A stretch of DNA of 36,178 bases from Candidatus Bathyarchaeia archaeon (GTDB taxonomy: Archaea > Thermoproteota > Bathyarchaeia > Bathyarchaeales > Bathycorpusculaceae), in assembly GCA_038883795.1 (NCBI GenBank), contig JAVZLK010000013.1, forward strand, positions 1-36,178. The letters run 5' to 3'. The notes beneath the pieces are model-generated. The model saw only the letters and a program-made list of their open reading frames with translations, was not told the origin of the DNA and did not search any database. The position numbers were made by a program, and so were the translations under genes. Numbering within the stretch: the stretch's first letter is position 1; every line of letters begins with the position of its first letter. Positions 10,058 to 35,630 of this stretch are shown piece by piece.

Positions 10058-10191
10058 AGGCCTCCTTACATCCTCACATCAAAAATTATTTAAACTTTTA
10101 GTTACTAACATTCAATAACTTTAAGAAACTTGTAAACTTGGTTATTGACCAAGCGTGTATTGCTCTTTTAATTATAGAAACAAGAGAACAT

Positions 10192-12600: not shown

Positions 12601-13322
12601 TTGATTTCCTCTGGCGTTATATATGGCTTTTCAGGAAGACTGTATCCGTACGGCTTGTCCGGCAAGTCAAGTCCCGTCACCTTAAGTCCAGCTTTAACTA
12701 TTTTCGCAACCAATGCGACTTTCCTGCCTAGCATCCATGCCATCTCAACAGCCGACGTTTCGCGTTTTAAACGTCCTGCCCGCCATTTGTCCCGTCTTGC
12801 ATCGCCTATATTCTGTGCTGAACTTGTCGCGCCTAATTGCCCATGAGGAGAAGTCATTCCAATGGGTATCATATCGTTGTGGAAAAAGAAGTAGTGTATA
12901 GTTAGTAGAGTAAACTCTTGACCTGAATTCTTGCCCCCGCCAACCGCAATTGCTCCGCCAACTTTTAGCCTCAGATGTTTCTCTTTAGTTCCAATACCGC
13001 GCATTCTGTCAAGCATGTTCTTACAAAGTCCGCTCACTGTCCCATAATAAACTGGTGATCCAATTATTATTCCATCGGCTGAGAGGAGTTTTGGGTAAAG
13101 CATGTTCATATCGTCATTTTGGACGCATTTGTTATGTTCTATGCAATAATCACATCCTAAACATGGATTAATTTTTTTACCAACAAGGTTTAAGTACTCA
13201 GTTTCTGCATCAGACACTGATAAACTTCCTTTAAGCGCTGCTTTAACGAGAACCTCTGTATTACCATGCCTTGGACTAGCTGAAATTCCCAGAATCTTGA
13301 CCTTTAGCGTTTTGTTTTCCAT
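12597..13322 (-). CDS. Iron-sulfur flavoprotein (Isf/WrbA-like flavodoxin family)
   Basis: GISASPRHGNT, compact CxxCxxCx5C motif (CLGCDYCIEHNKC), GSPVYYG, GGGKNSGQE. ATGA overlap with the next gene. Confidence 0.92.
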   Translation of the reverse strand: MENKTLKVKILGISASPRHGNTEVLVKAALKGSLSVSDAETEYLNLVGKKINPCLGCDYCIEHNKCVQNDDMNMLYPKLLSADGIIIGSPVYYGTVSGLCKNMLDRMRGIGTKEKHLRLKVGGAIAVGGGKNSGQEFTLLTIHYFFFHNDMIPIGMTSPHGQLGATSSAQNIGDARRDKWRAGRLKRETSAVEMAWMLGRKVALVAKIVKAGLKVTGLDLPDKPYGYSLPEKPYITPEEIK

Positions 13323-13698: not shown

Positions 13699-15654
13699 AT
13701 GGTTTCACACAGTTATACTAAGATATTAAGAGTAGATCTCACAAAGAAAACATGGTCAACCAAAGAAATGTCAGGTATAGAAAAATTCTTTATCGGTGGA
13801 TCAGGTTTAGCACCATGGATTCTTTATAACGATTTAGCTCCAAAATTGGATCCGCTAGATCCTGACAGCGAAATTATCTTTAGTACTGGTCCACTGGTTG
13901 GCACTGGGATTATAGGAGGAAATAGAACAGTAATTTCCGGGAAGTCTCCATTAAGCGAAACTTATTATCATTGCCATGGAGGCGGTTTTTTTGGGGCTGA
14001 ATTAAGAGCTACTGGCTTGAGCCATATAATAATTACAGGCAGAAGTAAGAATCCAGTATACTTAATGATAGACGATGATCGCGTTGAGATAAAGGATGCA
14101 AGACATTTATGGGGCAGAACCATATCAGAAGCTGACGAGATTATAAAAAAAGATGTTGGAGATAGAAAAATAAAGACTGCAATTATAGGGCCTGCTGGAG
14201 AGAACCTTTGTAGATACGCTTGTTTTATTTTAGATAAATGGCATGCCCCTGCTGGAGGTGGGATGGGGTGTATAGCCGGCTCCAAGAAACTTAAGGCAAT
14301 TGCTATAAAGGGAACTCAAGAACCCCTAGTTGTGAACCCGGAGCATGTAAAGAACGTTAACGAACAAATATTAAAGGATTTAGATGGGGCATTATATGCA
14401 AAAATGTGGAAGACGCTTGGCTCTATTTTTCTAGTATATCAAAACTATCTGCAAGGAGTTTTATCTGCAAAAAATTTTCAAGAAAACAATTGGACAAAGA
14501 CCGTACTGGTAAATCCATTTCTTTGGGCGAGAAAATACAAGGTTGGAGTTGCGACATGCTTTTCATGCCCAGTAGCTTGCAAGGGTATTTACGAAGTTAA
14601 AGTCGGCCCGTTCAAAGGGACAAAAGGACAAAATGTTGAATTTGGTCATATAACGCAGTTTGCATCACAAGTAGATATAGCAGATTATGGTGCCATCTGT
14701 TATCTACAAAACCTCATAACCAGTGAGTTTGGGATGGACGTAAAGGAATTAGGCCACACGCTTGGAATGGCGATGGAATGCTATCAAAGGGGAATCATTT
14801 CAAAAGAACACACTGGTGGAATAGCGTTAGAGTGGGGAAACATAGAGGCTGTAACGGAAATGATTAAAATGATTGCTTATAGGAAAGGGTTCGGTGATGT
14901 TCTTGCTGAGGGAGTTAAAAGAGCCGCTATGATTATCGGGAAAGGAGCCAAAAGATACGCAATGCATGTAAAAGGTATGGCTTTAGACGGGGTAGACATA
15001 CGTGCAGCACAGTCTTGGGCGTTAGGCCATGCTGTTGGAACTAGAAGTGATCATTTGGCGCATTTTGAGGTCTTTTCTAGAAGAGGCGATAAGGATTTTG
15101 CCCAAAAAGTGCTTAAAAACGGAAATGCAGCGGATTTATATTCGCCATTAGCCAAAGGAAGGGCCATATGGTGGGCAGAGAACTATAAGGCTATTGTTGA
15201 CGCACTAGGGTTATGCGCATTTATCACAAACGTAATTTTTGCATTTTATCCTCTCAATAAAATAGCCAAAATGTACACTGCAGTAACTGGCGCACCAGTT
15301 AGTGAAGAAGAACTTTTCACATGCGGGGAAAGAATAATCCAGGTGGAGAAAGCCTTCAATGCCAGAGAAGGCTTCTCGAGAAAAGACGATACGTTACCAT
15401 GGAGAGTAATGAAAGAACCAACAACTGAGGGACACGGAAAAGGTAAAGTTGCATATCTGGATCATCCTGAAATGCTAACCGAATACTACGAGTTTAGAGG
15501 CCTCTCTGAGGATGGACTTCCAACCGAAGAAAGGTTACACGAGCTCGGATTACACGAATTAGCTGCCGACCTAAGGAGACATAATAAGCTCTCATCCTCC
15601 AAGCAAAAAATGAGATTTAAAGAAATTGCTGCCAATTTAACACTTACGTGGTAG
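13699..15654 (+). CDS. aor: Aldehyde:ferredoxin oxidoreductase family tungstoenzyme
   Basis: ILRVDLT, KSPL, IGPAGEN, GSKKLKAI, CFSCPVAC, FGMD, SDHL, DALGLC, KDDTLP. Confidence 0.92.
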   Translation: MVSHSYTKILRVDLTKKTWSTKEMSGIEKFFIGGSGLAPWILYNDLAPKLDPLDPDSEIIFSTGPLVGTGIIGGNRTVISGKSPLSETYYHCHGGGFFGAELRATGLSHIIITGRSKNPVYLMIDDDRVEIKDARHLWGRTISEADEIIKKDVGDRKIKTAIIGPAGENLCRYACFILDKWHAPAGGGMGCIAGSKKLKAIAIKGTQEPLVVNPEHVKNVNEQILKDLDGALYAKMWKTLGSIFLVYQNYLQGVLSAKNFQENNWTKTVLVNPFLWARKYKVGVATCFSCPVACKGIYEVKVGPFKGTKGQNVEFGHITQFASQVDIADYGAICYLQNLITSEFGMDVKELGHTLGMAMECYQRGIISKEHTGGIALEWGNIEAVTEMIKMIAYRKGFGDVLAEGVKRAAMIIGKGAKRYAMHVKGMALDGVDIRAAQSWALGHAVGTRSDHLAHFEVFSRRGDKDFAQKVLKNGNAADLYSPLAKGRAIWWAENYKAIVDALGLCAFITNVIFAFYPLNKIAKMYTAVTGAPVSEEELFTCGERIIQVEKAFNAREGFSRKDDTLPWRVMKEPTTEGHGKGKVAYLDHPEMLTEYYEFRGLSEDGLPTEERLHELGLHELAADLRRHNKLSSSKQKMRFKEIAANLTLTW

Positions 15655-17296
15655 CACATTTACTAGCTACCTCTTGGAGTCTATATAATTTTTTGATCCA
15701 ATCTTCCCCCGCTTCCTCAGCTTGCTTTATTCGTTTAGAAAATTCCATTTCTGCTTGCTTCTCTGAAATTTCCTTTGCGTTTGATGTTTTAATATGGATC
15801 ACGTTATCGATATTTAATAGCGTGATAGCCAAAGAGCTAGCGAGTTTTAAACTTTCCTCAAAAATATGCAATGGCTCGATTACTCCAATTTCAAACATTT
15901 CTTCAAGCCTAACATAAGGAAGAAGTATACCTACCGTTGAGTCCCCATTGTAATGTCTTCTTTTTAATTCGCTTATTATGTTGAAGGGATCAACGCCCGC
16001 ATTAGCAACTAGTATGGAGACAACATCTTCAAGCGCGTTTGAGAATGCTTTTACGGCAAGAGCCTCTTTTGATTCTATGTTTTTACTATATTTTTGTAGT
16101 TGGATAGCAATTTCGATAAATGTTGCTCCGCCTCCAGCCACTACCCTTTCATCTTTGGAGAGTGCAGAAACAACTTTTATTGCTTGGCTTAATGCTTTTT
16201 CGGCGTTGTTAATGATGTGCTTGTTGCCTTTTAGAACTATCGTTGAAAATCTTGAATTTTCACTTCCGTCGATGTATACATAATGATCGGATCCTTCCTT
16301 TTTTTCAATAACTTGAGTCGTCATACCTAGATCATTTACAGATAGGTCAAAGACATCATATACAAGTTTAGCACCCGTAACTTTTGATATCGCCATAATG
16401 TCTGAATAGGCAGTTCTCGAATAAGCCATAATCCCCAAATTAACAAAATGATCTAGTATAGAATCTGCAATGTCCTCGTAACAGAAAACAAGATTAACTC
16501 CTAAAGCCTCTATTTTATCCGCAATAGAAGCTGCTAATTTCTTTTCGCCTTCCGTAATATCCTTCAGCTTTTTGGGAGTGGAAATAATTTCAATATCCAT
16601 TCTAGTTTTATGGGTTTTCAGCGGGCACATGAATAAAGCAACCTTAGCATTCTTAATGTTTCGCGGCATTTCAAATCTCGCTCCTTTAGCTTTAATGATA
16701 GCCCCTCTATACAATTCTGACTCAGTTAATGATCCAACAGCTTTTTTGCGGAACTTAACATTATCAACTACTTCTTCATTTTTCTTCTCTATCACTGGTT
16801 TTATTGCAGCTGCCATCAAATCTGCAAGAAAATTAGCTTCACAAGTTTTACTATCAATAGAGGTTTTAATAACTTGTTTTAAAATATTTAAATCAGAAGG
16901 TATTGCAGGTTTTGCAACTGAAGTTAAAATATTCTTGGCTTTTTGTATTGCAAATTGGTACCCATCAGCAATAATATTGGGGTGTAGCCCTTGATCAATT
17001 AAATTCACAGCCCTTTCTAATAGCCGGCTCATAAGAAGGACGGCGCGGATAGTCCCATCACCAACGTATTCTTTATAATGTCCAATATCTTTAACTACTA
17101 AGTTAACAATAGGATGATCGATATCAACAGTCTCAATTATATCTTTAACATCACCTGTTATCAAAAAGAAATCTTTATAGGCAACTATTTTTTGGCTACC
17201 ACATGGCCCCAACATGGTCTTAAGGACGTCTGATAGTAATGTGGCAGCCACTACATTGCGTTTGATGTGCATCAAATTTTCATTTTTTATAACCAT
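15644..17296 (-). CDS. Divergent group II chaperonin (thermosome/CCT-like) subunit
   Basis: LKTMLGP, IDHP, VGDGT, GLHP, MPRNIKNAKVAL, VAGGGA, NAGVDP, GVIEP; several ATPase residues are substituted. Confidence 0.9.
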   Translation of the reverse strand: MVIKNENLMHIKRNVVAATLLSDVLKTMLGPCGSQKIVAYKDFFLITGDVKDIIETVDIDHPIVNLVVKDIGHYKEYVGDGTIRAVLLMSRLLERAVNLIDQGLHPNIIADGYQFAIQKAKNILTSVAKPAIPSDLNILKQVIKTSIDSKTCEANFLADLMAAAIKPVIEKKNEEVVDNVKFRKKAVGSLTESELYRGAIIKAKGARFEMPRNIKNAKVALFMCPLKTHKTRMDIEIISTPKKLKDITEGEKKLAASIADKIEALGVNLVFCYEDIADSILDHFVNLGIMAYSRTAYSDIMAISKVTGAKLVYDVFDLSVNDLGMTTQVIEKKEGSDHYVYIDGSENSRFSTIVLKGNKHIINNAEKALSQAIKVVSALSKDERVVAGGGATFIEIAIQLQKYSKNIESKEALAVKAFSNALEDVVSILVANAGVDPFNIISELKRRHYNGDSTVGILLPYVRLEEMFEIGVIEPLHIFEESLKLASSLAITLLNIDNVIHIKTSNAKEISEKQAEMEFSKRIKQAEEAGEDWIKKLYRLQEVASKCATT

Positions 17297-19774: not shown

Positions 19775-20710
19775 TCATAGTTCGAAAAACTTTCTTGCAG
19801 TCTTTTCGAAGAGATTTTCTTTGAATTTGTCTGATAATGCAAGTGTCCGGAAATACTGCACGGTAAAAGACATAGGATACGTAAATGGGTAGTCTGTTCC
19901 AAACATAATTTTGTCAGGTATCGCAAACTCGCAATACCGTAAATGTTCTATGTCAAAGTAGTATTTTGGATATTGCATCCTAATGGGATTAGCCGGAGAA
20001 ACATCTGTATAAACGTTTTTGTGCCTCAGTGTTATATAAACGGCAATGCTGGGATTATGCAAATTTCCACAATGCAGCAAATATATTTTCAAATCTGGAA
20101 AGTCGACGGCAACGTCATCTACATAAATTGGATCTTGATATTTCAGCCTTGTCCCTGGATGCCCTTCCACTCCTGTATGAATTGCAACGTGAGCTTTAAG
20201 ATCAACAAGTTTTTCGTAAATTGGATACATTAACTCTTTATCGTTTGGAAAACCAGCAGCTGGTGTAAAAATTTTTATGCCCTTAAAACGGTACTCCTTT
20301 ATTGCTTTTTCCACTTCTTTAATACATTCTTTTGGTCCTTTTTTAGGGTTTATGCCTGCTTGCGCGATAAATCTGTTAGGATATTTATCGATAAATTCCT
20401 CCTTCATATAGTCGTTTGAAACATGCCACCACCACTCGTATGGCGGGTCAGTTTTCGCGTCCATTCCGCATAAAACTGCAATGTCTACACCGGCTCTGTC
20501 CATGTCTTGAATCCAATGGTTAACGGTGAAATCGGGAAGCTCTTCTATTTTTTCGATTGGACGTTCCGGATGGGGATCGCCTAATGCTTCTCTGAGTTTT
20601 CGTAAGAGTCTAACTTCCCATGTTTTTCCAAGCCAAAAATCTGCGCAACCGGGTCTGTGTTCAATCCCTTTCTTTTCAAGACCTGGGTGGGTATGAGTGT
20701 CTATTACCAT
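19775..20710 (-). CDS. Amidohydrolase-2 family metal-dependent hydrolase
   Basis: IDTHTH, IHTG, LLHCG, FGTDYPF. Confidence 0.92.
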   Translation of the reverse strand: MVIDTHTHPGLEKKGIEHRPGCADFWLGKTWEVRLLRKLREALGDPHPERPIEKIEELPDFTVNHWIQDMDRAGVDIAVLCGMDAKTDPPYEWWWHVSNDYMKEEFIDKYPNRFIAQAGINPKKGPKECIKEVEKAIKEYRFKGIKIFTPAAGFPNDKELMYPIYEKLVDLKAHVAIHTGVEGHPGTRLKYQDPIYVDDVAVDFPDLKIYLLHCGNLHNPSIAVYITLRHKNVYTDVSPANPIRMQYPKYYFDIEHLRYCEFAIPDKIMFGTDYPFTYPMSFTVQYFRTLALSDKFKENLFEKTARKFFEL

Positions 20711-20911
20711 TTTAAAGACCGAAGAGGATGTTATTTAATATAATTATTAAATCTTTCGCGCAACTTGGTTCATTCGCGATGTTTATTGCGCCCTTTGTAA
20801 GTTTAAGTTTTCTCTAATTTACTAAAGTGAGATATTTTAAGATATTTATTAAAAATAGAAAACGAAAAATTATTATAGGTTCGTACTTTTTTAAAAGAAA
20901 AGGTCTTAAAG

Positions 20912-21961
20912 ATGCAGTTAGAAGTCAAAATAGGCAAATTATTGTTTAAAAATCCTATTATTGTAGGCTCCGCAGGATATGCAGAAAACGCGACGGGAAT
21001 TGAAAGATTCATAAAGAGAGGGTACGCTGGAGTTGTTACTAAATCAACTGCTGAAAAGAGACTTGTAGGAGCCCCTCCGCCTAGGGTCTTTTGGCTAGAT
21101 AAATACCGAAGAAATTGGATAGACGGTAGTGAAGGGCATCGGAATCCTGGCATAGATGAAATGGTTGAAGAAGTGAAAAAATGTAGGGAATTGGCTGAGA
21201 AAGAAAACTGCCACATAATTGGAAGCATAACTTGTAAATCAATAGAAGAAGCAGTATCAATTGCAAAAAAGTTTGAAGAAGCAGGAGTCAGTGCAATAGA
21301 AATTGACATGGTCTGTCCTAACGTAGGTGAACAACTAGGCCCAGAGTATGCAACTAGAGGAGGTGAATACTGGAGTGACCCAAACCATCCGGAAAGGGCT
21401 ATAGAACTCATAAAAGCTGTTAAGAACCATGTGAAAATTCCTTTATGGTGCAAAATTAACCCTAAAACTTTGTTCCTCGCTGGAGAGAAAATCATGAATG
21501 AAGCTCCCCCAGACACGTTCGCTTATATCGGTTCAGGCTTTCCATCCTTTCCCCTAGGCCTAGCCATAGATATCGACACAGAAGAACCACTTTTCCCCGG
21601 AAATGTTTTATTAAAAATTAAAAAGAACATGAAATTTGTTCCATACGCAGTCATATATCCTCTATTGCCGACAACTGTTCTCACAACTGCCCTCTTAAGA
21701 AAAAAAATTAGCATCCCATTGATCCCTTCTGGTGGCATACAGACAGGATTTGATATTATACAGTGTATGATGGCTGGAGCTAATGCTGTACAAATATGCA
21801 CAGCTGTGTATAGAGACTTTGATGTCGTAAACACTATGCTTAGGGAAATTAAGTGGTTTATGGCCAAAAAAGGGTATGAAAGTATTGAAGAAATTATTGG
21901 AGTTGCACTTAAGAAGATCCCGTTTGAACTTATGGAAATTCCTGTAGGCAAAAGCGATTAG
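20912..21961 (+). CDS. Dihydroorotate/dihydropyrimidine dehydrogenase-fold FMN enzyme with altered substrate pocket
   Basis: KNPIIVGS, VVTKS, PRV, NPG, CPN, WCK, SGGI, AGANAVQICTA. Confidence 0.88.
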   Translation: MQLEVKIGKLLFKNPIIVGSAGYAENATGIERFIKRGYAGVVTKSTAEKRLVGAPPPRVFWLDKYRRNWIDGSEGHRNPGIDEMVEEVKKCRELAEKENCHIIGSITCKSIEEAVSIAKKFEEAGVSAIEIDMVCPNVGEQLGPEYATRGGEYWSDPNHPERAIELIKAVKNHVKIPLWCKINPKTLFLAGEKIMNEAPPDTFAYIGSGFPSFPLGLAIDIDTEEPLFPGNVLLKIKKNMKFVPYAVIYPLLPTTVLTTALLRKKISIPLIPSGGIQTGFDIIQCMMAGANAVQICTAVYRDFDVVNTMLREIKWFMAKKGYESIEEIIGVALKKIPFELMEIPVGKSD

Positions 21962-21975
21962 GAGGAACATTAATA

Positions 21976-22188
21976 ATGCCTAAACCAAAAATTAATGAAG
22001 AGTTATGCGTAGGTTGCATGGCGTGCACTGTTGCGTGTCCCATGGGCGTTCTTATAGAGCCTTTAATAGGAATGATTCCATTAATTAAGGCTGTAGAGCG
22101 GTGTACTGGTTGTAAACGGTGTGTCGATTTTTGTAGTTATTCCGCAATCAAGATAATAGAAGTCACGGGGAAAATTTTAAAGAGATGA
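21976..22188 (+). CDS. 2x[4Fe-4S] ferredoxin
   Basis: CVGCMACTVACP and CTGCKRCVDFCS; GGAGG RBS upstream. Confidence 0.93.
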   Translation: MPKPKINEELCVGCMACTVACPMGVLIEPLIGMIPLIKAVERCTGCKRCVDFCSYSAIKIIEVTGKILKR

Positions 22189-22194
22189 TACATT

Positions 22195-24042
22195 GTGAAT
22201 AGTGGAAGAATTTTAAAAATTGATCTTGCAAGAAAAAAGAAAATTGTTGAGACGTTAAATAGAGAGTATATTAAAGAGTTTATTGGTGGATTGGGGCTTG
22301 GTGTAAAACTAGCAGATGAGTATATTCCACCCACCATCGATCCATATGATCCAGATAACGTGTTAATTATCACAACAAGTCCGACAAGTGGATTGCCGAT
22401 ACCTAGTGGTTGGGAGTACACGTTCGTTAGCAAATCTCCACTAACGGGTGGCATTGCTGTTTCAATTTGCCATGGAATGTTTGCTGGTCACATGAAACGG
22501 GCAGGTTATGATGCAATTGTTATAAAAGGCACATCTGAAAAACCAATCTATCTGTTGGTCGACGATGAAGACATAACATTTAATGATGCACGGGATTTTT
22601 GGGGGAAATCACCGCGGAGAACCGAGGAGGCCATAAAAAAGGATTTAGGAGATTACTCAATTTCTGTGGCTACCATTGGATTATCAGGTGAGATGTTAGC
22701 GAAAATTTCATGCATTCTAACCAATCAAGTTCAAGTGTCAGGGAAAATGGGTTTAGGCGCTGTTTTAGGATCCAAAAATCTAAAGGCAATTGCAATACGA
22801 GGAAGTCATAGCGCTGAAGCCTGGGATGTTCAACGACTTGAAATTTTCTGTGAAGAAGCCCTTCTTACAACTAGAGGGTCCACTGCGGTGAGATGTTACA
22901 AAGAAGATTTTCTAACTGAAAAAGTAATAGTTAAAGATAGAATTTTAACAACAATATTCGAACCAGCTGTGAAGTATAGGGATCCCGGCGTCATAAGCGA
23001 CCTTTTAGTTCTTAACGAATTGGGGGTCCTACCCGCTAGAAATTTTACCTCTGGAGTATTTGAATCAGCCGATGAAATTTACAAAGACCTTAAAAAATTG
23101 GCTAAGAAGGCACATGCTTGCTCTCCGTGTTCCATGGGATGCCAACATTTAATTAATTCAGATGATACTTCTATCTATCTCGACTATGTTTCGGTATGGG
23201 CTTTTGGGCCCAATTGTGGTATAAAATCTGCAGACACAATTCTAAAAGCGATAGCTTTATGCAATTATTTTGGAATGGACCCGGTGTCGGTAGGTAACAT
23301 AGTAGGCTTCTCAATGGAATGCTATGAAAAGGAAATCATAGACTACGCTTCTACTGGTGGTTTGCATTTAAAATTTGGAAATGAAAAGGATATGCTTGAG
23401 CTGATTCAGAAAATAGGAGAGAGGAAAGATATTGGTAATCTTCTTGCAGAGGGGGTGAAGGCTGCAGCACAAGGAATAGGTAAAAATGCAGAAAAACTTG
23501 CCGTTCACATTAAAGGCGTTGAACTGGCCGGGTATGACTTGAGAGGACTGAAGACGGCTGCTTTAAGCTTTGCTGTATCTTTTAGAGACGCTTACTACGA
23601 TGGACAAGGAGCCTATCTTTTTGATATAAAAGGGATAAGTGACCGCTTTTCCGCAGGAAAGGGAAAAGGTAGGCTGGTAAAAGATTTGGAAGATTTTCTC
23701 ACAATTTTAAATTCAATCGGTATTTGCACATCCTTTGCAAGCGTATATGAACTTAAAGAACTTGCTGAGCTTTATAACATCATCACAGGAATTAATATCT
23801 CCCCTCAAGAACTGAGGATTTGCGGAGAGAAAATTAATGATCTAGCTAGGATTTTCAATTTTAATGCAGGGATCAAAAGAAATGATGATATCCCGGTTAA
23901 GTTTATTGAAAACCCGATACCTGAAGGCCCATCTAAAGGTTGCATCTTAACACCCGATGAGATGCAAATTTTACTTAAAGATTATTATGAAGAAAGATGT
24001 TGGACCGAGGGTGGTTTACCAAGGAGGTATAAATCTATTTAG
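22195..24042 (+). CDS. Divergent AOR-family protein
   Basis: GRILKIDL, SKSPLTG, GSKNLKAI, CSPCSMGC, GMD, SIGIC; canonical catalytic Glu and His motifs are altered. Confidence 0.9.
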   Translation: MNSGRILKIDLARKKKIVETLNREYIKEFIGGLGLGVKLADEYIPPTIDPYDPDNVLIITTSPTSGLPIPSGWEYTFVSKSPLTGGIAVSICHGMFAGHMKRAGYDAIVIKGTSEKPIYLLVDDEDITFNDARDFWGKSPRRTEEAIKKDLGDYSISVATIGLSGEMLAKISCILTNQVQVSGKMGLGAVLGSKNLKAIAIRGSHSAEAWDVQRLEIFCEEALLTTRGSTAVRCYKEDFLTEKVIVKDRILTTIFEPAVKYRDPGVISDLLVLNELGVLPARNFTSGVFESADEIYKDLKKLAKKAHACSPCSMGCQHLINSDDTSIYLDYVSVWAFGPNCGIKSADTILKAIALCNYFGMDPVSVGNIVGFSMECYEKEIIDYASTGGLHLKFGNEKDMLELIQKIGERKDIGNLLAEGVKAAAQGIGKNAEKLAVHIKGVELAGYDLRGLKTAALSFAVSFRDAYYDGQGAYLFDIKGISDRFSAGKGKGRLVKDLEDFLTILNSIGICTSFASVYELKELAELYNIITGINISPQELRICGEKINDLARIFNFNAGIKRNDDIPVKFIENPIPEGPSKGCILTPDEMQILLKDYYEERCWTEGGLPRRYKSI

Positions 24043-24062
24043 TAAAGTAAGGTGAAATAAAT

Positions 24063-24605
24063 ATGTCGTCAACAGATTATGTTGCTGAAAAACACTTAAA
24101 AAGTAAATGTATAAGTGTGGATATCGATAGGTGCATCGGCTGCGGAATTTGCGAGTTAATTTGTTCATTTGTTAAAAGCGGCGAAAAATCTTTTAATCCG
24201 CTATACTCTAGGATTCATGTGACACAGATCAATGGGGAAAATGTGGCTGTTGCGTGTTTAATGTGTGAAGATGCGCCATGCGTTAAGGCTTGCCCGCGAA
24301 ATGCGCTAACGCAATCGAAAGAAAACGGTATAATCTTAGTTGATGAAAGTAAATGTACAGGTTGCGGATGGTGCCTTATTGCTTGCAATTTTGGGAGCAT
24401 AATTTTCACAGAGAAAGGAAAAGTCACAACATGTGACCTTTGCGCTGGAAGAGAAAAAAGCCGTGTATTCCCTGGACGACCAATGACGCAGCAAGCATGC
24501 ATTGCGTGGTGTCCTGAAGAAGCAATAAGCCTCGTAGATAAACATAGGTTATCCCAAAAAATCCTACTTGAAACTATAGCAAAGCTGAGAAGTCCTGAAA
24601 CGTGA
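24063..24605 (+). CDS. 4x[4Fe-4S] polyferredoxin subunit (DmsB/NrfC/AorA-like)
   Basis: 16 Cys in four groups: CIGCGICELIC, CLMCEDAPCVKAC, CTGCGWCLIAC, CDLC...CIAWC. Confidence 0.93.
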   Translation: MSSTDYVAEKHLKSKCISVDIDRCIGCGICELICSFVKSGEKSFNPLYSRIHVTQINGENVAVACLMCEDAPCVKACPRNALTQSKENGIILVDESKCTGCGWCLIACNFGSIIFTEKGKVTTCDLCAGREKSRVFPGRPMTQQACIAWCPEEAISLVDKHRLSQKILLETIAKLRSPET

Positions 24606-24860
24606 TGAAGAGCTGTCAGAGTTAACGTCTGCGGCTTGTTAAGAATCATATTCCCATAATTTCTTGAGCGTAGACTAGGTGATATGAGTAGGAGATTTGA
24701 TAGCTAAAGTCACTTACACTGATTAAGTTGGTGTCCCCAAAATTTAATAGGTGAGCGGTAATAAAGTGAAAAATTACAAATTGTTGATATGCCCTACACG
24801 GCAAAAACTAATTAATCCGCAAATTAGAAAACCATTCAACAGAGGCGCAAGATCTTGGAT

Positions 24861-26048
24861 ATGCCATTAGAAGGTATTCGAGTTTTAGACTTGTCTCGAA
24901 TTTTAGCGGGCCCCTTCTGCTCAATGATCTTAGCTGATTTAGGAGCTGATGTAATAAAAATTGAAACGCCTGGGATAGGGGATGATACAAGATCCTGGGG
25001 GCCTCCATTTATTAATGGTGAAAGCGCATACTTCCTTTGCATCAATCGAAACAAAAAAAGCCTAACTCTAGATCTCAAAAGAGATTATGGAAAGAAAATT
25101 CTATACGAATTAGTAGAAAAATCTGATGTATTCTTGGAGAATTTTCGACCCGGAGTCACTGAAGAACTAGGTGTAGACTATGGAACTATTTGTAAAATTA
25201 ATCCACGCATTATCTACTGTTCAATTACCGGATTCGGACAAAATGGACCCTATAGAAATTGGCCAGCTTACGATATAATTATTCAAGGCATGGGTGGGCT
25301 AATGAGTATTACAGGCGAATTAAATAGGCCTCCAGTACGAATAGGTGTGGCAGTAACGGATATAGGAGCTGGCATGTACGCTGCTATCGCGATACTTTCA
25401 GCCTTAATCGCTCGAAATAAAATCGGGAAAGGCCAGTTTATTGACGTATCACTGTTTGACTCAACAATTTCATGGTTAACTTACATGGCGGCAAACTATT
25501 TCGCAACAGGTGAGGTTCCTAAGCGTATAGGGTCAGGGCATCCAAATATCGTGCCATACCAATGTTTTAAAACACGCGACAAAAAATACTTAACAGTTGC
25601 GGTAGGAAACGATAGACTCTGGAGGAGTTTCTGTAAAGCAATAGGCATGGAAAACTTGATAAATAACCCTATGTTCGCTACTAACTCGAAGCGAGTCGAA
25701 AATAGAAAGAAGCTAATCTCTGAATTGGAAAAAGTTTTTCTAAGTAAGACACGTGATGAGTGGATTAAGATTTTGCTAAAGGAAGGTGTGCCTTGTGGCC
25801 CTGTGTACACCATTAGCGAAATATTCAATGATTCGCAAGTTTTATTTAGAGAAATGCTAATTGAAATGGAACATGCAAAAGCAGGCAGAATAAAGCAAAT
25901 TGGAAATCCGATGAAATTTTCCAGAACACCTGGAAAAATTAGCAGACCGCCACCGCTTTTGGGCGAGCACACCGAAGAAATTCTAAAAAATCTGTTGGGA
26001 TATTCTTATGGAGAAATAAGAAAACTAAAAAGAGAAGGAATTATATAG
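24861..26048 (+). CDS. Class III CoA-transferase (CaiB/BaiF/Frc family)
   Basis: PLEGIRVLDL, LAGP, LGADVIKIE, NRNKKS, ENFRPG, catalytic Asp in VTDIGAG, PPLLGEHT. Confidence 0.96.
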   Translation: MPLEGIRVLDLSRILAGPFCSMILADLGADVIKIETPGIGDDTRSWGPPFINGESAYFLCINRNKKSLTLDLKRDYGKKILYELVEKSDVFLENFRPGVTEELGVDYGTICKINPRIIYCSITGFGQNGPYRNWPAYDIIIQGMGGLMSITGELNRPPVRIGVAVTDIGAGMYAAIAILSALIARNKIGKGQFIDVSLFDSTISWLTYMAANYFATGEVPKRIGSGHPNIVPYQCFKTRDKKYLTVAVGNDRLWRSFCKAIGMENLINNPMFATNSKRVENRKKLISELEKVFLSKTRDEWIKILLKEGVPCGPVYTISEIFNDSQVLFREMLIEMEHAKAGRIKQIGNPMKFSRTPGKISRPPPLLGEHTEEILKNLLGYSYGEIRKLKREGII

Positions 26049-26161: not shown

Positions 26162-27103
26162 TCATTGTAAATGCAGTAGCTTTCGTGCATTTAGCTCAAA
26201 AATTTTAAATTTATCTTCATCAGAAATTGGCAGTTCCATTACACTTTTGAGATTTTCTCCAATAAATACTTCACCATTTTTTGGACCGAATGGATAATCT
26301 GTAGCAAATAATATTCGATCAGGTCCAAAGAAGGAGTAGCCGCATGCCAACCCGCTCCGCCACCCGTCTATAGCGGTATCTGCATAAAAAAGTTTAAAGT
26401 TGTCTAAAATTTGCTTTGGGCTTTGAAACGTGGGTTTGTTTAGCAGTAAGCTTGTCTGGAGTCTGCCAACAAGATGCGGTAAGACCCCGCCAAGATGATG
26501 TACAACTATTTTAAGTGTTGGATATCTATGAAAGACCCCGCCCATTACGAGTCTGCACATGGCTTGCGTTGTGTCAAAAGGCCATCCGATGCTTAACATC
26601 AAGCCGTAATCTTTGAGGAGATAGTAACTCTCACAGTCAGCGGGGTGCACTAAAATAGGAAAATCATACTTAACCGCTTTTTCATATAATGGATAAAAAT
26701 CTTGTGAATCCAACGGTTTGCCTCGGATATTTGACGAAACTAATATGCCTTTAAAACCAAGTTCTCCAATTGCTCTACTAACTTCGTCTAACGCTTCTCC
26801 AACAGATGAAAGAGGTACGCAGGCAATACCTTCAAATTTGCCTAAATGTTTGTTGCATATATCGAATACGGCATCATTGAACGTCTTGCATAGACGCACT
26901 TCTTCAGCAACACTAAGACCCTTAATGGCATTGCTTAGAGGCATGCTTAATACCTGCATGGCAACATTATACTTTTCCATATGTTTCAATCTTTTTTGAG
27001 GATGCACAAAATACGGATTTGACGCAAAGCTTAGCACACGCGATTCCTTTACTATAGAAAATATTTGTTTAGGATAAATATGACAGAAGAAGTCAATAAT
27101 CAA
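26162..27103 (-). CDS. Amidohydrolase-2 family protein, ACMSD/aromatic-acid decarboxylase-like
   Basis: IIDFFCH (first His of HxH replaced), ILVHP, GWPFDT, HHLGG, FATDYPF; starts 41 bp downstream of ubiD. Confidence 0.9.
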   Translation of the reverse strand: MIIDFFCHIYPKQIFSIVKESRVLSFASNPYFVHPQKRLKHMEKYNVAMQVLSMPLSNAIKGLSVAEEVRLCKTFNDAVFDICNKHLGKFEGIACVPLSSVGEALDEVSRAIGELGFKGILVSSNIRGKPLDSQDFYPLYEKAVKYDFPILVHPADCESYYLLKDYGLMLSIGWPFDTTQAMCRLVMGGVFHRYPTLKIVVHHLGGVLPHLVGRLQTSLLLNKPTFQSPKQILDNFKLFYADTAIDGWRSGLACGYSFFGPDRILFATDYPFGPKNGEVFIGENLKSVMELPISDEDKFKIFELNARKLLHLQ

Positions 27104-27144
27104 ACCAATGACTCTCCATTATAATTGAGTAGTAAAGCGTTTGG

Positions 27145-28536
27145 TCATGTGCCGATCCCGTATTCAACCCACTTTTTCTCAACCATTTTTTTAATTTCCA
27201 TCGGTACGTCAGGCACCTCCGGGAACGCTTCCATAGGTTTTTTAGTGGCGTCAATCACCATCTTTGATATAAGACCGTGTTTTCTATTAAATGCAGAATC
27301 AATGCTGGGATCCAGTGAAGTGCCAGGAGTGTTTGGAAGTATAAATATATCCCGGTGCGGCTGTGTTCTAGTTGCTACCGCCCACATGACCTGTTTTAGA
27401 TCGAATGGATCAATATCCTCGTCGACTACAATTAAATATTTTATCATGCGTGCGGCTTCACATCCAAGTATAGCGCTTGCAATCCAATTGACAATTCCCT
27501 CAAATCTTTTTTCGACTTGAGCAACGGCTATCATTGAAACACCATCCTCAAGAATGTTAATGTTCTGTAATCCTGGCATAGGGCAAGTTCTAATGATTTC
27601 TGCTTGTAGCGACATTGAAAAAAGAATGTGATTTTCTGTTCCTACCCCAGTAAAACTAACATGATATATGGGATTGTCTCGGTACGTTACAGCTTTAATT
27701 TCAAATACTTCTCTAGGGTAGATGCCCCCATAATATCCATGGAATTCGCCGAAGGGTCCTTCGTTTTCGTATAAGTTTGGAATCACTTCGCCCTCTAATA
27801 CTATTTCGGCGGTTGCTGGTACTTCTAGTGGTATGGTTTCACATTTAACTAATTCTATTGGTTGTCCCCTTAATGTGCCAGCCATGGCAATTTCGTCAAC
27901 TTCATACGCAAACGGTGCTGCAGCACAAATCCATATCACCGGATCAGCGCCTATCGCAACAGCTACTGGAAATCGATTTCCTTTAGCTTCAGCTTTTGAT
28001 TTTTGTATGTACATGTGCCTAAAGGGTGTTAATTGAAAACCTGTTGTTCTTTTGCCCCGAACCATCATCCTATAAATTCCAACATTTCGCCAACCTGTTT
28101 CCGGGTCCTTACTGATCACACACGGGGCAGTAATATATGGCCCACCATCTTTTTCATTCCAGTATGGAATTGCCCATGGAAGTTTCATCAAGTCTATTTC
28201 ATCTCCGATTAGTATGTTTTCTTTGCAAGGACCGTCTTTTACCACCACTGGTTCTGTTGGACCCTTCCTAAGAGCATTTATCCATTTCTTAGTGACCTCC
28301 TCTTCGGTGGTTTCCAATGCTAAGGCAAATCTTCTTCTCGTAGCGATTAGATTTGCTAATATTGGAGCATTGTAGCCCTTTATTTTTTCAAAAAGTAATG
28401 CAGGAGATTTTGCATCGGTAGCTTTTCTACATATAGCGCTCAATTCGAAGCGGGGGTCTACCTCAGCTTTGATTTTTATTAACTCGCCTTCTTTTTCAAG
28501 AATTCCCAAAAATTCTCTTAGGTCATTATAAGGCAT
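27145..28536 (-). CDS. ubiD: UbiD-family prFMN-dependent (de)carboxylase
   Basis: DLREFL, PALLFE, DGGPYIT, NVGIYR, EIVLEG, EGPFGEFHGYY, VVDEDID, LDPS, IDAT. Confidence 0.95.
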   Translation of the reverse strand: MPYNDLREFLGILEKEGELIKIKAEVDPRFELSAICRKATDAKSPALLFEKIKGYNAPILANLIATRRRFALALETTEEEVTKKWINALRKGPTEPVVVKDGPCKENILIGDEIDLMKLPWAIPYWNEKDGGPYITAPCVISKDPETGWRNVGIYRMMVRGKRTTGFQLTPFRHMYIQKSKAEAKGNRFPVAVAIGADPVIWICAAAPFAYEVDEIAMAGTLRGQPIELVKCETIPLEVPATAEIVLEGEVIPNLYENEGPFGEFHGYYGGIYPREVFEIKAVTYRDNPIYHVSFTGVGTENHILFSMSLQAEIIRTCPMPGLQNINILEDGVSMIAVAQVEKRFEGIVNWIASAILGCEAARMIKYLIVVDEDIDPFDLKQVMWAVATRTQPHRDIFILPNTPGTSLDPSIDSAFNRKHGLISKMVIDATKKPMEAFPEVPDVPMEIKKMVEKKWVEYGIGT

Positions 28537-28686
28537 TTTAACTCCCAGCAGTGCTTTTGTACATGTAGTATTTATAATTTAAAGAATAAAATTGTCTAAA
28601 ATCTCATTTTCTGCTCCATATCCCTTTTGCTCGCGGACTTTTTGTGAAATGATATGCACGGACACCTTTACAATGTTTGAGCTTGG

Positions 28687-29400
28687 TTAAGTCTTTAATA
28701 CACCCGAAATTTGCTCTCTTTTAAGCAATGTTTGAGTAAAGATTCTTGATGTGGTTATCCAACCAAAAAGTCGGCTGATATTCCATAAAGTTGCCTTTTT
28801 GGCATATTTGGGGCCTACCGCCTCGCAACAATCTGATATAACGATAGGCCAAAACTCTCTGTGGAAGGCATCACGCACGGTGGATTCAACGCAAATGTTT
28901 AATGCAACTCCGGTAAAAAACAGGTATTTAAGTTTTAAATGGCTCAATACTTTTTCTAAATCTGTGTTAACAAAACCGCTGTATCTTTGTTTGTCGATGA
29001 TTACATCCCCTGCCATGGGTTTAAGTTCATTAATAATTTCAGCGCCCCATGTTCCTTTAATTAACAATTTTTCTTTAAGTTCTGGGCTTTGACGTGCGAG
29101 CACGGAGCATCGTGCTTTCCAGTAGTGGGGAGAATCTGCATTTCCAGTATCGGATAAATCGGGTGCATGTGTATGCCTTATGTATATTATTTTAAAACCA
29201 AGCTTCCTTGAAACGTCCAAAACATTTGTAAGCGGTTTAATTAAACATCTAAGGTTCAATATATCATAGCCAAGAATATCAAACATTCCTCCTTTACTTA
29301 AAAATGCGTTCTGTGCATCTACTACAACAACTGCGGTTTTTGCCAAATCTACTAATATAGGCGCTGGTTTAGCTGAAATCTTTACAATTCTTTTTTCCAC
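28687..29400 (-). CDS. rutB: Cysteine hydrolase (isochorismatase family), RutB-like amidohydrolase
   Basis: Asp-Lys-Cys triad (VVDAQN, KQRYSGF, NICVESTVRD) plus RutB-like segments SPHYWK, KLLIKGTW, AVGPKYAKKATLWNI..FGW. Family is certain; orthology is not. Confidence 0.8.
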   Translation of the reverse strand: MEKRIVKISAKPAPILVDLAKTAVVVVDAQNAFLSKGGMFDILGYDILNLRCLIKPLTNVLDVSRKLGFKIIYIRHTHAPDLSDTGNADSPHYWKARCSVLARQSPELKEKLLIKGTWGAEIINELKPMAGDVIIDKQRYSGFVNTDLEKVLSHLKLKYLFFTGVALNICVESTVRDAFHREFWPIVISDCCEAVGPKYAKKATLWNISRLFGWITTSRIFTQTLLKREQISGVLKT

Positions 29401-32315: not shown

Positions 32316-32912
32316 TCAAAAACCTTGGACATTAAACACGCTGGGCTGAGAGCCAAAATTAAGTGCCTTCGCTGGTGTTTTACTCTGCATGCGCACGCGT
32401 GATTTGGCTAAAATTCCATAAGTTAACATGGACACACTTAAGAGCGCTGTTATTGTTCCTAATCCTGTATAGGGGTAAAATGATCGCGTTACCTCTCCTA
32501 TTTTTTTCACATCGCCCGATATGCTCACAGAGTTTGTTCGCTCATTTTTTATTTGCAGAAAATCCGCGTTTTTTCCGGCAATTTCAACTTTCTGTTTAAA
32601 AATTGTTCCGGTCTGATTAAAGATTACGTCCTCCCAAACTTCCTCTTTTGTAGTTGGATCAAAACTGACGAGTCTTCCTATAATAACTCTGACAGGCTCT
32701 GAAGCTGATATGTTCAATTCCAAGAAGGTTCCATTTTGTGTTAGGGCAGCAAAAGCCCAACCTGTGATGTTTCCAGGGTTAAGTGATGAAGGTGTGATCG
32801 GGTCCCATTTTTCAATTACAACCTCCTCGACATGCACTTCATATATGAAGCAAGCCAAAACAATAGTGATTATTAGAAGACTAAACCCGACAATAACGAA
32901 AATTACTCTCAT
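32316..32912 (-). CDS. Hypothetical membrane protein (N- and C-terminal TM helices around a beta-rich domain)
   Basis: 198-aa ORF with two hydrophobic stretches. Confidence 0.75.
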   Translation of the reverse strand: MRVIFVIVGFSLLIITIVLACFIYEVHVEEVVIEKWDPITPSSLNPGNITGWAFAALTQNGTFLELNISASEPVRVIIGRLVSFDPTTKEEVWEDVIFNQTGTIFKQKVEIAGKNADFLQIKNERTNSVSISGDVKKIGEVTRSFYPYTGLGTITALLSVSMLTYGILAKSRVRMQSKTPAKALNFGSQPSVFNVQGF

Positions 32913-32960
32913 CGTACCAGCCGCTTAGAGCTCATTTCTTGAAAATGTCCATTCATGAAT

Positions 32961-33122
32961 TTAGCGTTTCTGTCTTTCCCTCAATATTTGATATAGAACG
33001 CCGTCTTCTGACAATATTAACACGCAGCCACATTTTGGACATTTGTAATAACAGTTTACACCCTTTTCCCCCTTCTGCTCACCGAGAAACTCAATCTTAC
33101 TGTGTAGGCATTCATCAGGCAC
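32961..33122 (-). CDS. Small zinc-ribbon-like protein (53 aa), not in the ORF track
   Basis: GTG start; MPDECLHSKIEFLGEQKGEKGVNCYYKCPKCGCVLILSEDGVLYQILRERQKR with CxH...CxxC; AAGGA RBS-like motif and a TATA-like box upstream. Confidence 0.75.
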   Translation of the reverse strand: MPDECLHSKIEFLGEQKGEKGVNCYYKCPKCGCVLILSEDGVLYQILRERQKR

Positions 33123-33321
33123 GTTAACATCCTTCCGAAGCTATTCTAAAAATAATAAAAGCATTACTTATACATTTTGCGCGTATAGGGTTATTAAGAA
33201 ACCACAAAAACCAAAATCTGCCTCATTTTTAAATACATTTTTCCAAAGCATGAAGTTGCAGCGAAAATCAAAAATTAACTCCGCCATTTAAACCTCTTCC
33301 AGCTACTAAAACTTGTTTGGT

Positions 33322-34144
33322 TTAGACTGGTATTGGGCGGCGTTTTAGGGCTCTGTAAGCAATCATGATTAATGTGCTTATTATTGTCCACGTGGTTACA
33401 GTGCGGACGGCTGTTGTGTTTACGCTGTGAATATTTATCTGTGTCGGGTCTTGTGTTAGAAAGAGTGCGGAGAATGTGAATATGCCCACCGTTAATGCAC
33501 TTATTATGTCTATTACTCTTTCTCTTTGTTGAGTTGGAGGCATGGCTTGTTTTAAAATCGCCTTTCTGAATATGATGGCAGTTAATGTGCATATTACTGC
33601 AATTGCGATGTAGGCTTCTAGGCGGATTTGTGGGGCTTGCGGCACGTTCAGCTGGATCCCAATACGGAAAAGTAAACTTCCAAGGATAAGCATAGAAAGC
33701 AAAGCTGCCTTTTGAAGCGTTGAAAGCTGTTTGTGGTTCCAGTTTCTTGGGAAGAGGCGGGTTGCCATGTAGAAAGTTAGGACGCCTTGAGTCATGCCCC
33801 ACCAGAAAAAGTTGACAAAGAAAAGCGCAGCCCAATTTATGCCGAAGGCTTGTGGCTCGACAAACTGGGTGGCTGGCACAAAAATTGTGAAGGCTGTCCC
33901 GAAAAAGAATCCGGTGATGAGGACATTATAGTCTTTTAAGCGGTGTTTGGTTATTAGGTCGCCCTTCTAAAAGGGCGAAGTACGGGAAATACACCAGAAA
34001 AAGGAAAAATGGTAGCATGGGACGAACGGCTAGGTTGTTTACGCCTCGCATAGAATATTCAAAGAGTAGGTTGAAGCCTACGGCTGTAAACACTATCTTC
34101 CAATGGTTCAACCTTAAGCCGCCCGTCACTTTATGCAAGCCCAT
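33322..34144 (-). pseudogene. Polytopic membrane protein gene split by one frameshift near 33961
   Basis: ORF 33926..34144 (...YFALLE) continues in another frame as DLITKHRLKDYNVLITGFFFGTAFTIFV directly into ORF 33322..33879. Confidence 0.8.
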
Positions 34145-34245
34145 GTGTTATAAACAAATGTGAATAGGTGTTTGCAACAACAAATTATGCTCATACATCT
34201 AAGGAGAGTGCTCTCGCCGTTTTGCCCTGGATTGGTGGTGGGTGA

Positions 34246-34623
34246 TTATTCTATTCCCCATTTTTTGGTTATCTTGACTATTATGAAGACTGCGAGGGCT
34301 ACTATGAGGAATGTTATTAGGGTGCCTATAAAATGTCCGATGCGGAATGGGCCCAACACGAAGGCTTCCCACTCTACGCCTGGCAGTATCAATGTTATTA
34401 TTGGCATTATTAGGTCTCCTACAAGTGCTTGAACCAATGTGCCCAAGTATAAGCCGAGGATGAAGGCTACTGCCATTCCCATAACCTTGTATTTGGATAT
34501 GAAGTCTAGGAACTCGTTCCATAAGCCTTTCTTTGGCGGTGGGGCTGGTTTAGGCTCTAATAGGGCTTTTATTTCCTTCAGAACCTGCAATATTTCTTCA
34601 TCCTTATCTTTGGTTTTAGACAT
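34246..34623 (-). CDS. mscL: Large-conductance mechanosensitive channel
   Basis: EFLDFISKYKVMGMAVAFILG, LVGDLIMPII, GHFIGTLITFLIVA. Confidence 0.92.
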   Translation of the reverse strand: MSKTKDKDEEILQVLKEIKALLEPKPAPPPKKGLWNEFLDFISKYKVMGMAVAFILGLYLGTLVQALVGDLIMPIITLILPGVEWEAFVLGPFRIGHFIGTLITFLIVALAVFIIVKITKKWGIE

Positions 34624-35534: not shown

Positions 35535-35630
35535 GGTTTATGGTGCTCCGGGTTTAGGTTTGCTCCGATAGAAAACTTGGTGTGTTATGCTTAAATTTGT
35601 TTGGAACATTAGGTTATGTTGGTGTTGGGT

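Follow-up and report, generated by a model that had tools for sequence, protein, structure and literature searches.

A four-gene locus in a Bathyarchaeia genome places a DHODH-fold flavoprotein and a ferredoxin beside an AOR-family oxidoreductase pair: a candidate redox unit

The contig JAVZLK010000013.1 of a Candidatus Bathyarchaeia archaeon (assembly GCA_038883795.1) was analyzed over positions 1 to 36,178, and this whole 36,178-nt stretch is called the window. It contains four co-oriented genes, numbered 1 to 4, which are the subject of this report. They encode a flavin mononucleotide (FMN) barrel with the fold of dihydroorotate dehydrogenase (DHODH) and of domain IV of dihydropyrimidine dehydrogenase (DPD), a ferredoxin, a protein resembling aldehyde ferredoxin oxidoreductase (AOR) of the tungsten-containing oxidoreductase (WOR) family, and an electron-transfer subunit of the WorS type. 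From the sequence and the list of open reading frames (ORFs), the features of the locus are:

20711..20911, + strand: A+T-rich intergenic region of 201 bp, presumed promoter region
20912..21961, + strand: gene 1, DHODH-fold (class 1 DHODH / DPD domain IV-like) FMN barrel, 349 aa, ATG start
21976..22188, + strand: gene 2, 2x[4Fe-4S] ferredoxin, 70 aa, ATG start, two CxxCxxCxxxC motifs, Fer4 families
22195..24042, + strand: gene 3, AOR/WOR-family pterin-binding large subunit (WorL-like), 615 aa, GTG start, AFOR_N and AFOR_C
24063..24605, + strand: gene 4, WorS-type 4x[4Fe-4S] electron-transfer subunit, 180 aa, ATG start, 16 Cys

An initial annotation of this DNA had described four co-oriented genes with gaps of 14, 6 and 20 bp, and these values are exact in the ORF list. 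Judged by spacing alone, the four genes would be co-transcribed as an operon. Purine-rich words resembling ribosome-binding sites were found 5' of the ferredoxin start (AGGAGG) and 5' of gene 4 (AGGTGA), and an Amidohydro_2 gene (19775-20710, - strand) is divergent from gene 1. No Rfam family matched within positions 20400-25100. The sequencing runs containing this DNA are hot-spring metagenomes of three studies, and none is listed on record as RNA. Short contigs from two runs labelled metatranscriptomic, but marked 'probably DNA', span the gene 1/2 and gene 3/4 junctions and cannot show a transcript.

Pfam assigned gene 1 to DHO_dh (4.4e-32), gene 2 to many Fer4 and 4Fe-4S dicluster families, gene 3 to AFOR_N (1.1e-63) and AFOR_C (2.9e-96), and gene 4 to Fer4_11 and related families. 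The Cys motifs bear out the count of up to seven Fe-S clusters given earlier for the four proteins, with one in the AOR-like protein, four in the WorS-type protein and two in the ferredoxin. It had also been noted that PreT, PyrK and AorC are missing from the window. We likewise found no flavin adenine dinucleotide (FAD) domain of the PyrK, PreT/GltD or AorC type in the 30 window ORFs scanned.

The barrel scored far below the cut-offs of the NCBIfam models NF005574 (141.4 vs 269 bits) and TIGR01037 (136.1 vs 270), of the archaeal PyrD model NF041011 (90 vs 330) and of the PreA model NF006183 (78.7 vs 335 bits). Its top PDB match was L. lactis DHODB (1.9e-16). The AlphaFold2 (AF2) model, with a predicted local distance difference test score (pLDDT) of 89, has the class 1 DHODH / DPD domain IV fold, and the top Foldseek matches were L. 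lactis DHODA and DHODB, trypanosomatid DHODHs and pig DPD (template modeling (TM) scores of 0.59-0.69). Relatives of the barrel are called 'dihydroorotate dehydrogenase' in the source databases, while in the ESM Atlas its closest clusters carry the names PreA or dihydrouracil dehydrogenase. The genome encodes a PyrD and PyrK pair elsewhere (G000:C18; L169 4596-5525 and 5494-6321), whose PyrD is 26-29 % identical to the barrel. The barrel resembles class 1B PyrD-PyrK enzymes in its fold, FMN-binding Lys and catalytic Cys, but has no adjacent PyrK. A housekeeping DHODH was ruled out by the low scores and the separate pair; by sequence, the barrel and the PyrD/PyrK pair are paralogous, and the barrel is not the enzyme of pyrimidine biosynthesis.

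Close relatives of the barrel are very rare. A search of 5.8 billion clusters recovered a clade of 32 representatives, including the window's own, with E values of 1.2e-37 or lower and at least 32 % identity; beyond this clade, scores drop to those of ordinary DHODHs (E of 1.5e-25 or higher). An exhaustive search of 1.84 billion representatives found 31 proteins reaching 1e-30. Three samples of genomes, all species representatives, were also searched; they overlap, and their counts are not additive. There was one match in 100 genomes of relatives (weak, a fused PreA-like protein at 33 %), one in 400 genomes of the phylum (weak and also fused) and none at E of 1e-50 or lower in 400 other genomes of the class. 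When genome contigs were scanned with the barrel alignment, the best 80 loci were all ordinary DHODHs with 31 % identity or less and gave no synteny information. The 20 best of 150 listed barrel representatives are 241-410 aa long and have no Fe-S motifs, and weaker matches reach 695-914 aa.

The barrel keeps the main FMN-binding and catalytic residues. In a HMMER alignment to L. lactis DHODB, K44 corresponds to the FMN Lys and C135 to the catalytic Cys in the NISCPN motif of DHODB. Both are invariant across 30 clade members, and the C-terminal FMN-phosphate loops are retained in the barrel. Since these residues are kept, the chemistry is probably conserved, that is, the transfer of a hydride by FMN and a proton by Cys onto or from a C=C beside a carbonyl. 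The Asn residues of 'MLNADG', 'ELNISC' and 'TMIN' in L. lactis DHODB align with G72, D132 and G207 of the barrel. We take these three Asn and the position of N137 to be the orotate- or uracil-binding site of class 1 DHODH and DPD. G72 and D132 are almost invariant in the barrel clade, and N137 is retained in the barrel in a column that varies across the clade. Other almost invariant residues are specific to the clade (e.g. E74, H76, R77, W61 and W154), and the barrel has insertions relative to class 1B DHODH around residues 55-70 and 225-250. Orotate and uracil are both unlikely as the substrate.

No Cys motifs are present at the end of the barrel, and an Fe-S domain is encoded as the separate ferredoxin ORF. 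The idea that genes 1 and 2 are a split PreA-like module held for the architecture, as fused DHO_dh and 2x[4Fe-4S] relatives of 394-412 aa (29-32 % identity) occur in the same phylum and on a metagenome contig described below (loci L085 and L088). It was less well borne out for the ferredoxin itself, which resembles the C-terminal domains of PreA weakly (E 5e-5 to 2e-4). As in PreTA/DPD and in PydAc of Clostridium chromiireducens, a catalytic-Cys FMN barrel is combined with a 2x[4Fe-4S] unit as its feed. The likeness to PydAc extends to the presence of FMN and Fdx domains and the lack of an FAD/NADPH domain in the window set, as far as the available text on PydAc goes (PMC7332683). In a C. pasteurianum variant described in the same text, one Fdx domain has an ORF of its own (PMC7332683). 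Unlike in PreA and PydAc, the window barrel and ferredoxin are fully split and the candidate donor belongs to the AOR family. PreT is encoded alongside PreA and, unlike there, is not in the window, although it is present beside one relative (L086, below). As for the fused proteins, the one in L088 (406 aa) adjoins an enolase-superfamily gene and a cupin, and another (412 aa; G041:C23, L168 6820-9743) has a DUF1989 gene on one side and an XdhC-like gene on the other.

The AOR-like protein is full-length. Its PDB matches include 9mqx_D (2.1e-94), P. furiosus AOR (1aor_A, 4.3e-92), AorB (8.3e-78) and BamB (8.6e-42), the last being the weakest of nine. Like AOR sensu stricto, it has AFOR_N and AFOR_C and the four cluster Cys (CxxCxxxC and the distal Cys of the [4Fe-4S] cluster), and the second pterin Asp is also kept. 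Thr243, Glu313, Tyr427 and His448 are conserved in aldehyde-oxidizing members, and a Glu313-His448 proton relay has been proposed, according to the available parts of two reports (PMC12096430, PMC13328260). In the window protein, unlike in AOR sensu stricto, the P. furiosus Glu313 is replaced by Val332 and His448 by Tyr468; the Tyr427 equivalent is kept. The earlier label 'AOR-like' was therefore apt. The register of the position count was checked by Cys288, Cys291 and Cys295, which fall on known cluster ligands. The Thr243 equivalent lay outside the HMMER alignment and could not be mapped. We disregarded Tyr452, another residue of the proposed relay, as its column is Gly in generic AORs too, which makes the alignment there unreliable.

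The loss of Glu313 is shared by the closest relatives of this protein. An alignment of 123 sequences was built from 119 database matches, the two AORs of the window and the two of L085. All 105 generic homologues have Glu in the 313 column and His in the 448 column. None of the 16 closest relatives, including those of the window and L085, has the Glu (9 Gly, 5 Gln, 1 Val and 1 His), and 10 have the His. Tyr427, the cluster Cys and the second pterin Asp are kept in the alignment of this clade. On a 44-row tree with 15 Glu-less sequences (the partial P0123 was omitted), every fourth generic sequence (27 of the 105) and two outgroup paralogues, the Glu state changes once, with Shimodaira-Hasegawa-like approximate likelihood ratio test (SH-aLRT) values of 81 on the Glu-less side and 97 on the Glu side. 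Because the groups were defined by the counted residue, the tree demonstrates that they cluster but does not test this independently. The four AORs known or inferred to adjoin barrel genes lie in four separate sub-branches of the Glu-less clade, and the closest AOR homologues that have names carry Bathyarchaeota or Bathyarchaeia labels in the source databases. A search of 400 genomes of the class with a central Glu-less member matched 80 other genomes. The 29 best loci, each from a different genome, have 'EYE' without exception, so that Glu is kept. Thus, where no member of the barrel clade was found, the Glu-less clade was not found either. A second AOR-family gene of the window (13699-15654, + strand, 651 aa) lacks a neighboring polyferredoxin and has a non-canonical active site, with Gly in the Glu313 column and Val in the Tyr427 column.

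The 16 Cys of the 180-aa WorS-type protein form four motif groups, and 16 of 16 are invariant in 38 aligned homologues. Its PDB matches are 9mqx_E (1.4e-22), WOR5 (6x6u_B, 7.2e-21) and AorA (8c0z_C, 4.8e-18). Genes 3 and 4 thus resemble the class II WORs, P. furiosus WOR5/ASOR and C. bescii GOR, in having a large subunit with AFOR_N, AFOR_C and a [4Fe-4S] cluster and an adjacent small subunit with four [4Fe-4S] clusters. The criteria in the available text of the 2026 WOR classification score them as class II (PMC13328260). In contrast to class II WORs, the window pair has a DHODH-fold FMN protein and a dedicated ferredoxin 5' of it in conserved order, and the Glu313 equivalent is missing throughout the clade of its AOR.

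The initial annotation had proposed looking for the four-gene order in other genomes. A scan of metagenome contigs found three close barrel relatives, at loci L085, L086 and L087, among the best 80 loci; the other 77 have 31 % identity or less. L085 has the four genes in the window's order with gaps of 9, 3 and 45 bp. Identity to the window is 61 % for the barrel, 72 % for the ferredoxin, 46 % for the AOR and 56 % for the polyferredoxin. The flanking genes are unlike the window's. Upstream lie a LivJ-type binding protein and a Mo hydroxylase of the CoxS/L/M type (xanthine dehydrogenase family). The maturation genes of this hydroxylase (MocA-, MoeA- and XdhC-like) follow downstream on the opposite strand. 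Because the order is kept at these identities with different flanks, the adjacency goes beyond chance. Farther upstream on the same contig, L088 contains a Liv-type ABC transporter and the fused PreA-like paralogue with its enolase-superfamily and cupin neighbors. Two extra AOR paralogues are on this contig, one within L085 (161-1786). On this 28.8-kb contig (L088 955-6773, L085 161-7479), genes for pterin and flavin redox enzymes are densely clustered.

Two further contigs appear to carry all three larger proteins, as indicated by equal sizes. A 35231-bp contig is the longest one for barrel P0015, AOR P0127 and polyferredoxin P0245, which have the same sources, and a 27527-bp contig is the longest one for barrel P0009, AOR P0146 and polyferredoxin P0246, again with the same sources. 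Judged from these sequences, at least one independent contig, and probably three, preserve the link between barrel, AOR and polyferredoxin.

The other two close relatives have different partners. L086 (1-3616, at a contig end) contains a barrel (45 %), a ferredoxin (49 %), a PyrK-like gene and a PreT/GltD-like gene (Fer4_20 and Pyr_redox_2), and no AOR gene was found in it. Every part of DHODH 1B and of DPD is within this one cluster, and its 'ferredoxin' ORF has 192 aa, including an unassigned C-terminal extension. At L087 (barrel 62 %), an Amidohydro_1 gene of the cyclic amidase type and a 72-aa ORF lie 5' of the barrel, and the contig ends after the barrel. The constant unit looks like barrel plus ferredoxin, a putative portable acceptor module. 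Since it occurs with two kinds of partner, either NAD(P)H-type flavoproteins or an AOR and a polyferredoxin, it would accept different electron-input modules. The PyrK- and PreT-like partners in L086 provide our strongest argument that AOR and WorS stand in for PreT/PyrK in the window.

Based on these comparisons, we lean slightly toward the view that the four genes are one functional redox unit with two modules, in which electrons from a pterin site pass through Fe-S clusters to FMN and reduce a C=C. Module A would be a two-subunit AOR/WOR pterin oxidoreductase, made of the WorL-like protein with its unusual active site and WorS with four [4Fe-4S] clusters. Module B would be a split PreA-like reductase, made of the DHODH-fold FMN barrel with its catalytic Cys and the dedicated 2x[4Fe-4S] ferredoxin. 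An aldehyde or another low-potential donor would be oxidized at the pterin site. Since the clade lacks Glu313, 'aldehyde' is a default here and not a finding. Electrons would then pass from the WorL cluster through the four WorS clusters and the two ferredoxin clusters to FMN, where FMN and Cys135 would reduce the C=C of an unsaturated acid or a lactam-type heterocycle. The barrel would thus work like dihydropyrimidine or dihydroorotate dehydrogenases when these run reductively, and this direction should be downhill for every substrate known for this fold. AOR and WorS would take the place held in known relatives by PreT, PyrK or free ferredoxin. We infer the electron flow between the modules, its direction, the substrate class and the metal (W or Mo). 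A stable complex of all four proteins is possible, though we would not count on it. A complex prediction with barrel, ferredoxin and WorS scored 0.00 in both runs, with no controls folded; it counts neither way.

Both halves of this arrangement have precedents. PydAc is a PreA-like enzyme without the FAD/NADPH part that is driven by reduced ferredoxin, according to the available text (PMC7332683). The available text of the WOR classification describes WorLS units in class III and class IV that pass electrons into add-on modules (PMC13328260). AorABC of Aromatoleum aromaticum (class III) and WorLSABC (class IV) are therefore alike in having a WorLS wire that feeds an add-on flavoprotein module (PMC13328260, same portion). 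However, their add-on is the FAD/NAD(P) subunit WorN or the bifurcating WorABC, whereas the window's would be a DHODH/DPD-fold FMN barrel, itself a substrate-converting site in its relatives. No WorN FAD subunit for NAD(P) was found in the window or L085, and no WorABC or BamDEFGHI modules were found in the window or L085/L088. The class II benzoyl-CoA reductase BamB-I is also similar, as the available descriptions give it an AOR-family non-aldehyde active site and a polyferredoxin, BamC, wired to redox modules. BamC has three clusters compared to four in the window WorS, and its PDB match is weak (2.1e-6). In addition, BamDEFGHI-like genes are absent here and the window AOR-like protein is closer to true AORs. 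A benzoyl-CoA reductase of the BamB type was rejected for the lack of Bam partners in these loci and because BamB gave the weakest PDB match.

Several observations weigh against one coupled unit. Gene order could be read in one contig beyond the window (L085), and no barrel fused to an AOR or polyferredoxin was found among the 20 best of the 150 listed representatives. Several Glu-less AORs (e.g. P0124, 146 kb) are on contigs whose lengths match those of no listed barrel homologue, so the link between barrel and AOR may not be obligatory. The loss of Glu313 also extends beyond the clade, as the outgroup paralogues at 13699-15654 of the window and 161-1786 of L085 have Gly. WorLS pairs with ordinary AORs are common in the class, such as P0248 and P0172 on a 176682-bp contig, so module A could work alone with free ferredoxin. 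A partner of the barrel may also be encoded in trans, because PF14691, the N-terminal domain of PreT/GltD, has matches in the genome, confined to other contigs (C5, C2 and C3). Finally, a search for the tungstate-binding protein WtpA (TIGR03730) found no match in the 87 % complete genome.

The genes around the locus provide some context for the substrate. The window also encodes an aminotransferase, a D-2-hydroxyacid dehydrogenase, a family III CoA-transferase and two decarboxylase-like Amidohydro_2 proteins, one of which has ACMSD, LigW and uracil-5-carboxylate decarboxylase (IDCase) as its best PDB matches. This last gene lies in a run on the - strand (26162-29400) with a UbiD-family decarboxylase and a RutB-like isochorismatase-family amidohydrolase (5e-52), and the run suggests that a (hetero)aromatic acid undergoes decarboxylation and amide hydrolysis. 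The RutB-like amidohydrolase and the IDCase/ACMSD-like decarboxylase are 1.5-4 kb from the four genes. No dihydropyrimidinase or pyrimidine-degradation cluster was found in the window. By their predicted functions, the neighbors suggest catabolism of an aromatic or N-heterocyclic carboxylic acid imported by a Liv-type transporter. Elsewhere in the window, two adjacent genes for molybdopterin oxidoreductases of the bis-(pyranopterin guanine dinucleotide) (bis-PGD) type (748 and 802 aa; 7811-13322, - strand) have an NADPH-dependent FMN-reductase-like gene 5' of them, an apparently unusual case of a flavoprotein instead of an Fe-S subunit. A thermosome gene (15644-17296), which marks the organism as archaeal, and a radical S-adenosylmethionine (SAM) protein with a DUF1848 region (34671-35534, - strand) are also present. 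No Pfam family matched at E of 0.001 or lower for several ORFs of 107-455 aa in 88-1455 (+ strand), 32316-34522 (- strand) and 35538-36050 (- strand).

The most serious alternative is that the locus encodes a pair of ferredoxin-dependent enzymes that work independently, have a transcription unit and a pathway in common and form no stable four-subunit complex. A class II WOR would reduce the ferredoxin pool, a PydAc-like reductase would draw on ferredoxin, and the 70-aa ferredoxin would be a part of the reductase or a diffusible shuttle. WorLS pairs without a barrel gene are the usual state in the class, and it is because such pairs, with ordinary AORs, are so common that this explanation remains serious. 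Free ferredoxin is used both by class II WORs and by PydAc in the available accounts (PMC13328260 and PMC7332683, respectively), and the lack of fusion proteins among the 20 best barrel representatives points the same way. However, the order is kept with gaps of 3-45 bp over 46-72 % identity while the flanks have changed, and two rare clades, the barrel and the Glu-less AOR, co-occur. In addition, L086 has PyrK and PreT partners, a type of protein that assembles into fixed complexes with barrels of the DHODH fold. We therefore consider two separate enzymes rather unlikely.

Electrons could also flow in reverse. The barrel would oxidize a dihydro-compound, or electrons would come from another donor, and the AOR-like subunit would reduce a carboxylic acid or a BamB-like activated ring. 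The acid-base pair of aldehyde oxidation, Glu313 and His448, is indeed replaced in the window protein, and the neighbors include decarboxylases of aromatic or heteroaromatic acids (UbiD, ACMSD/LigW/IDCase-like) and a CoA-transferase. The ring reductase BamB is also the only WOR activity unlinked to aldehydes in the available text of the classification (PMC13328260). However, the W site of BamB is at -650 mV, attained through bifurcation only, as reported in the available part of PMC12096430, and an FMN/Cys site works near the potential of its substrates, far above that. No bifurcating or Hdr/Nuo-like subunits were found in the window or L085, and BamB ranks last among the nine PDB matches (8.6e-42 vs 2e-94). 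Reverse flow is thus improbable. It corresponds to the 'low-potential ring reductase' of the initial annotation, for which no Bam-type or bifurcating subunits are present. A chance neighborhood of an ordinary AOR and an ordinary DHODH of pyrimidine biosynthesis, which the plain database labels of the barrel's relatives might suggest, is very improbable given the separate PyrD/PyrK pair on contig C18 at 26-29 % identity, the barrel scores far under every DHODH cut-off, the alteration of both active sites and the four-gene order conserved in L085.

The known donors and partners of DHODH-fold barrels are PyrK, PreT, quinone, fumarate and free ferredoxin. A pterin enzyme is not known to serve as the electron source for such a barrel. 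A literature search found no paper on a gene cluster of an AOR and a DHODH-like protein, nor on this cluster in Bathyarchaeota. The 2026 classification recognizes five WOR subunit architectures, namely L, LS, LS with an FAD subunit, LS with ABC or Bam, and membrane-bound, and gives a known physiological role for 5 of 92 WOR clades in its available text (PMC13328260). A DHODH- or PreA-type FMN subunit is not named there, and 'dihydroorotate' and 'dihydropyrimidine' are missing from the main text (PMC13328260). The parts of the locus are known, and their combination is undescribed in the literature searched; the AOR active site is altered and the flavoprotein clade is very rare.

The boldest form of the proposal is an undescribed class of WOR complex, in which a WorLS wire runs through a ferredoxin into a DHODH-fold FMN 'reductase head'. 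With two substrate-converting sites, such a complex would couple oxidation at a pterin site that lacks Glu313, and that may act on non-aldehydes, to the reduction of a C=C or a ring without a soluble carrier. We regard this form as speculative and would not expect it to hold in full. If true, the complex would short-circuit redox internally during the fermentation of an unsaturated or heteroaromatic acid. The four genes cover 3.7 kb and are a small, concrete target for expression. An AOR clade without the catalytic Glu is flagged here as one whose chemistry may go beyond classical aldehyde oxidation. A conserved module that joins the two halves would be a new architecture for both the WOR and the DHODH-fold flavoenzyme families, and it would point to direct coupling of oxidation and reduction where uncultured hot-spring archaea degrade organic acids anaerobically.

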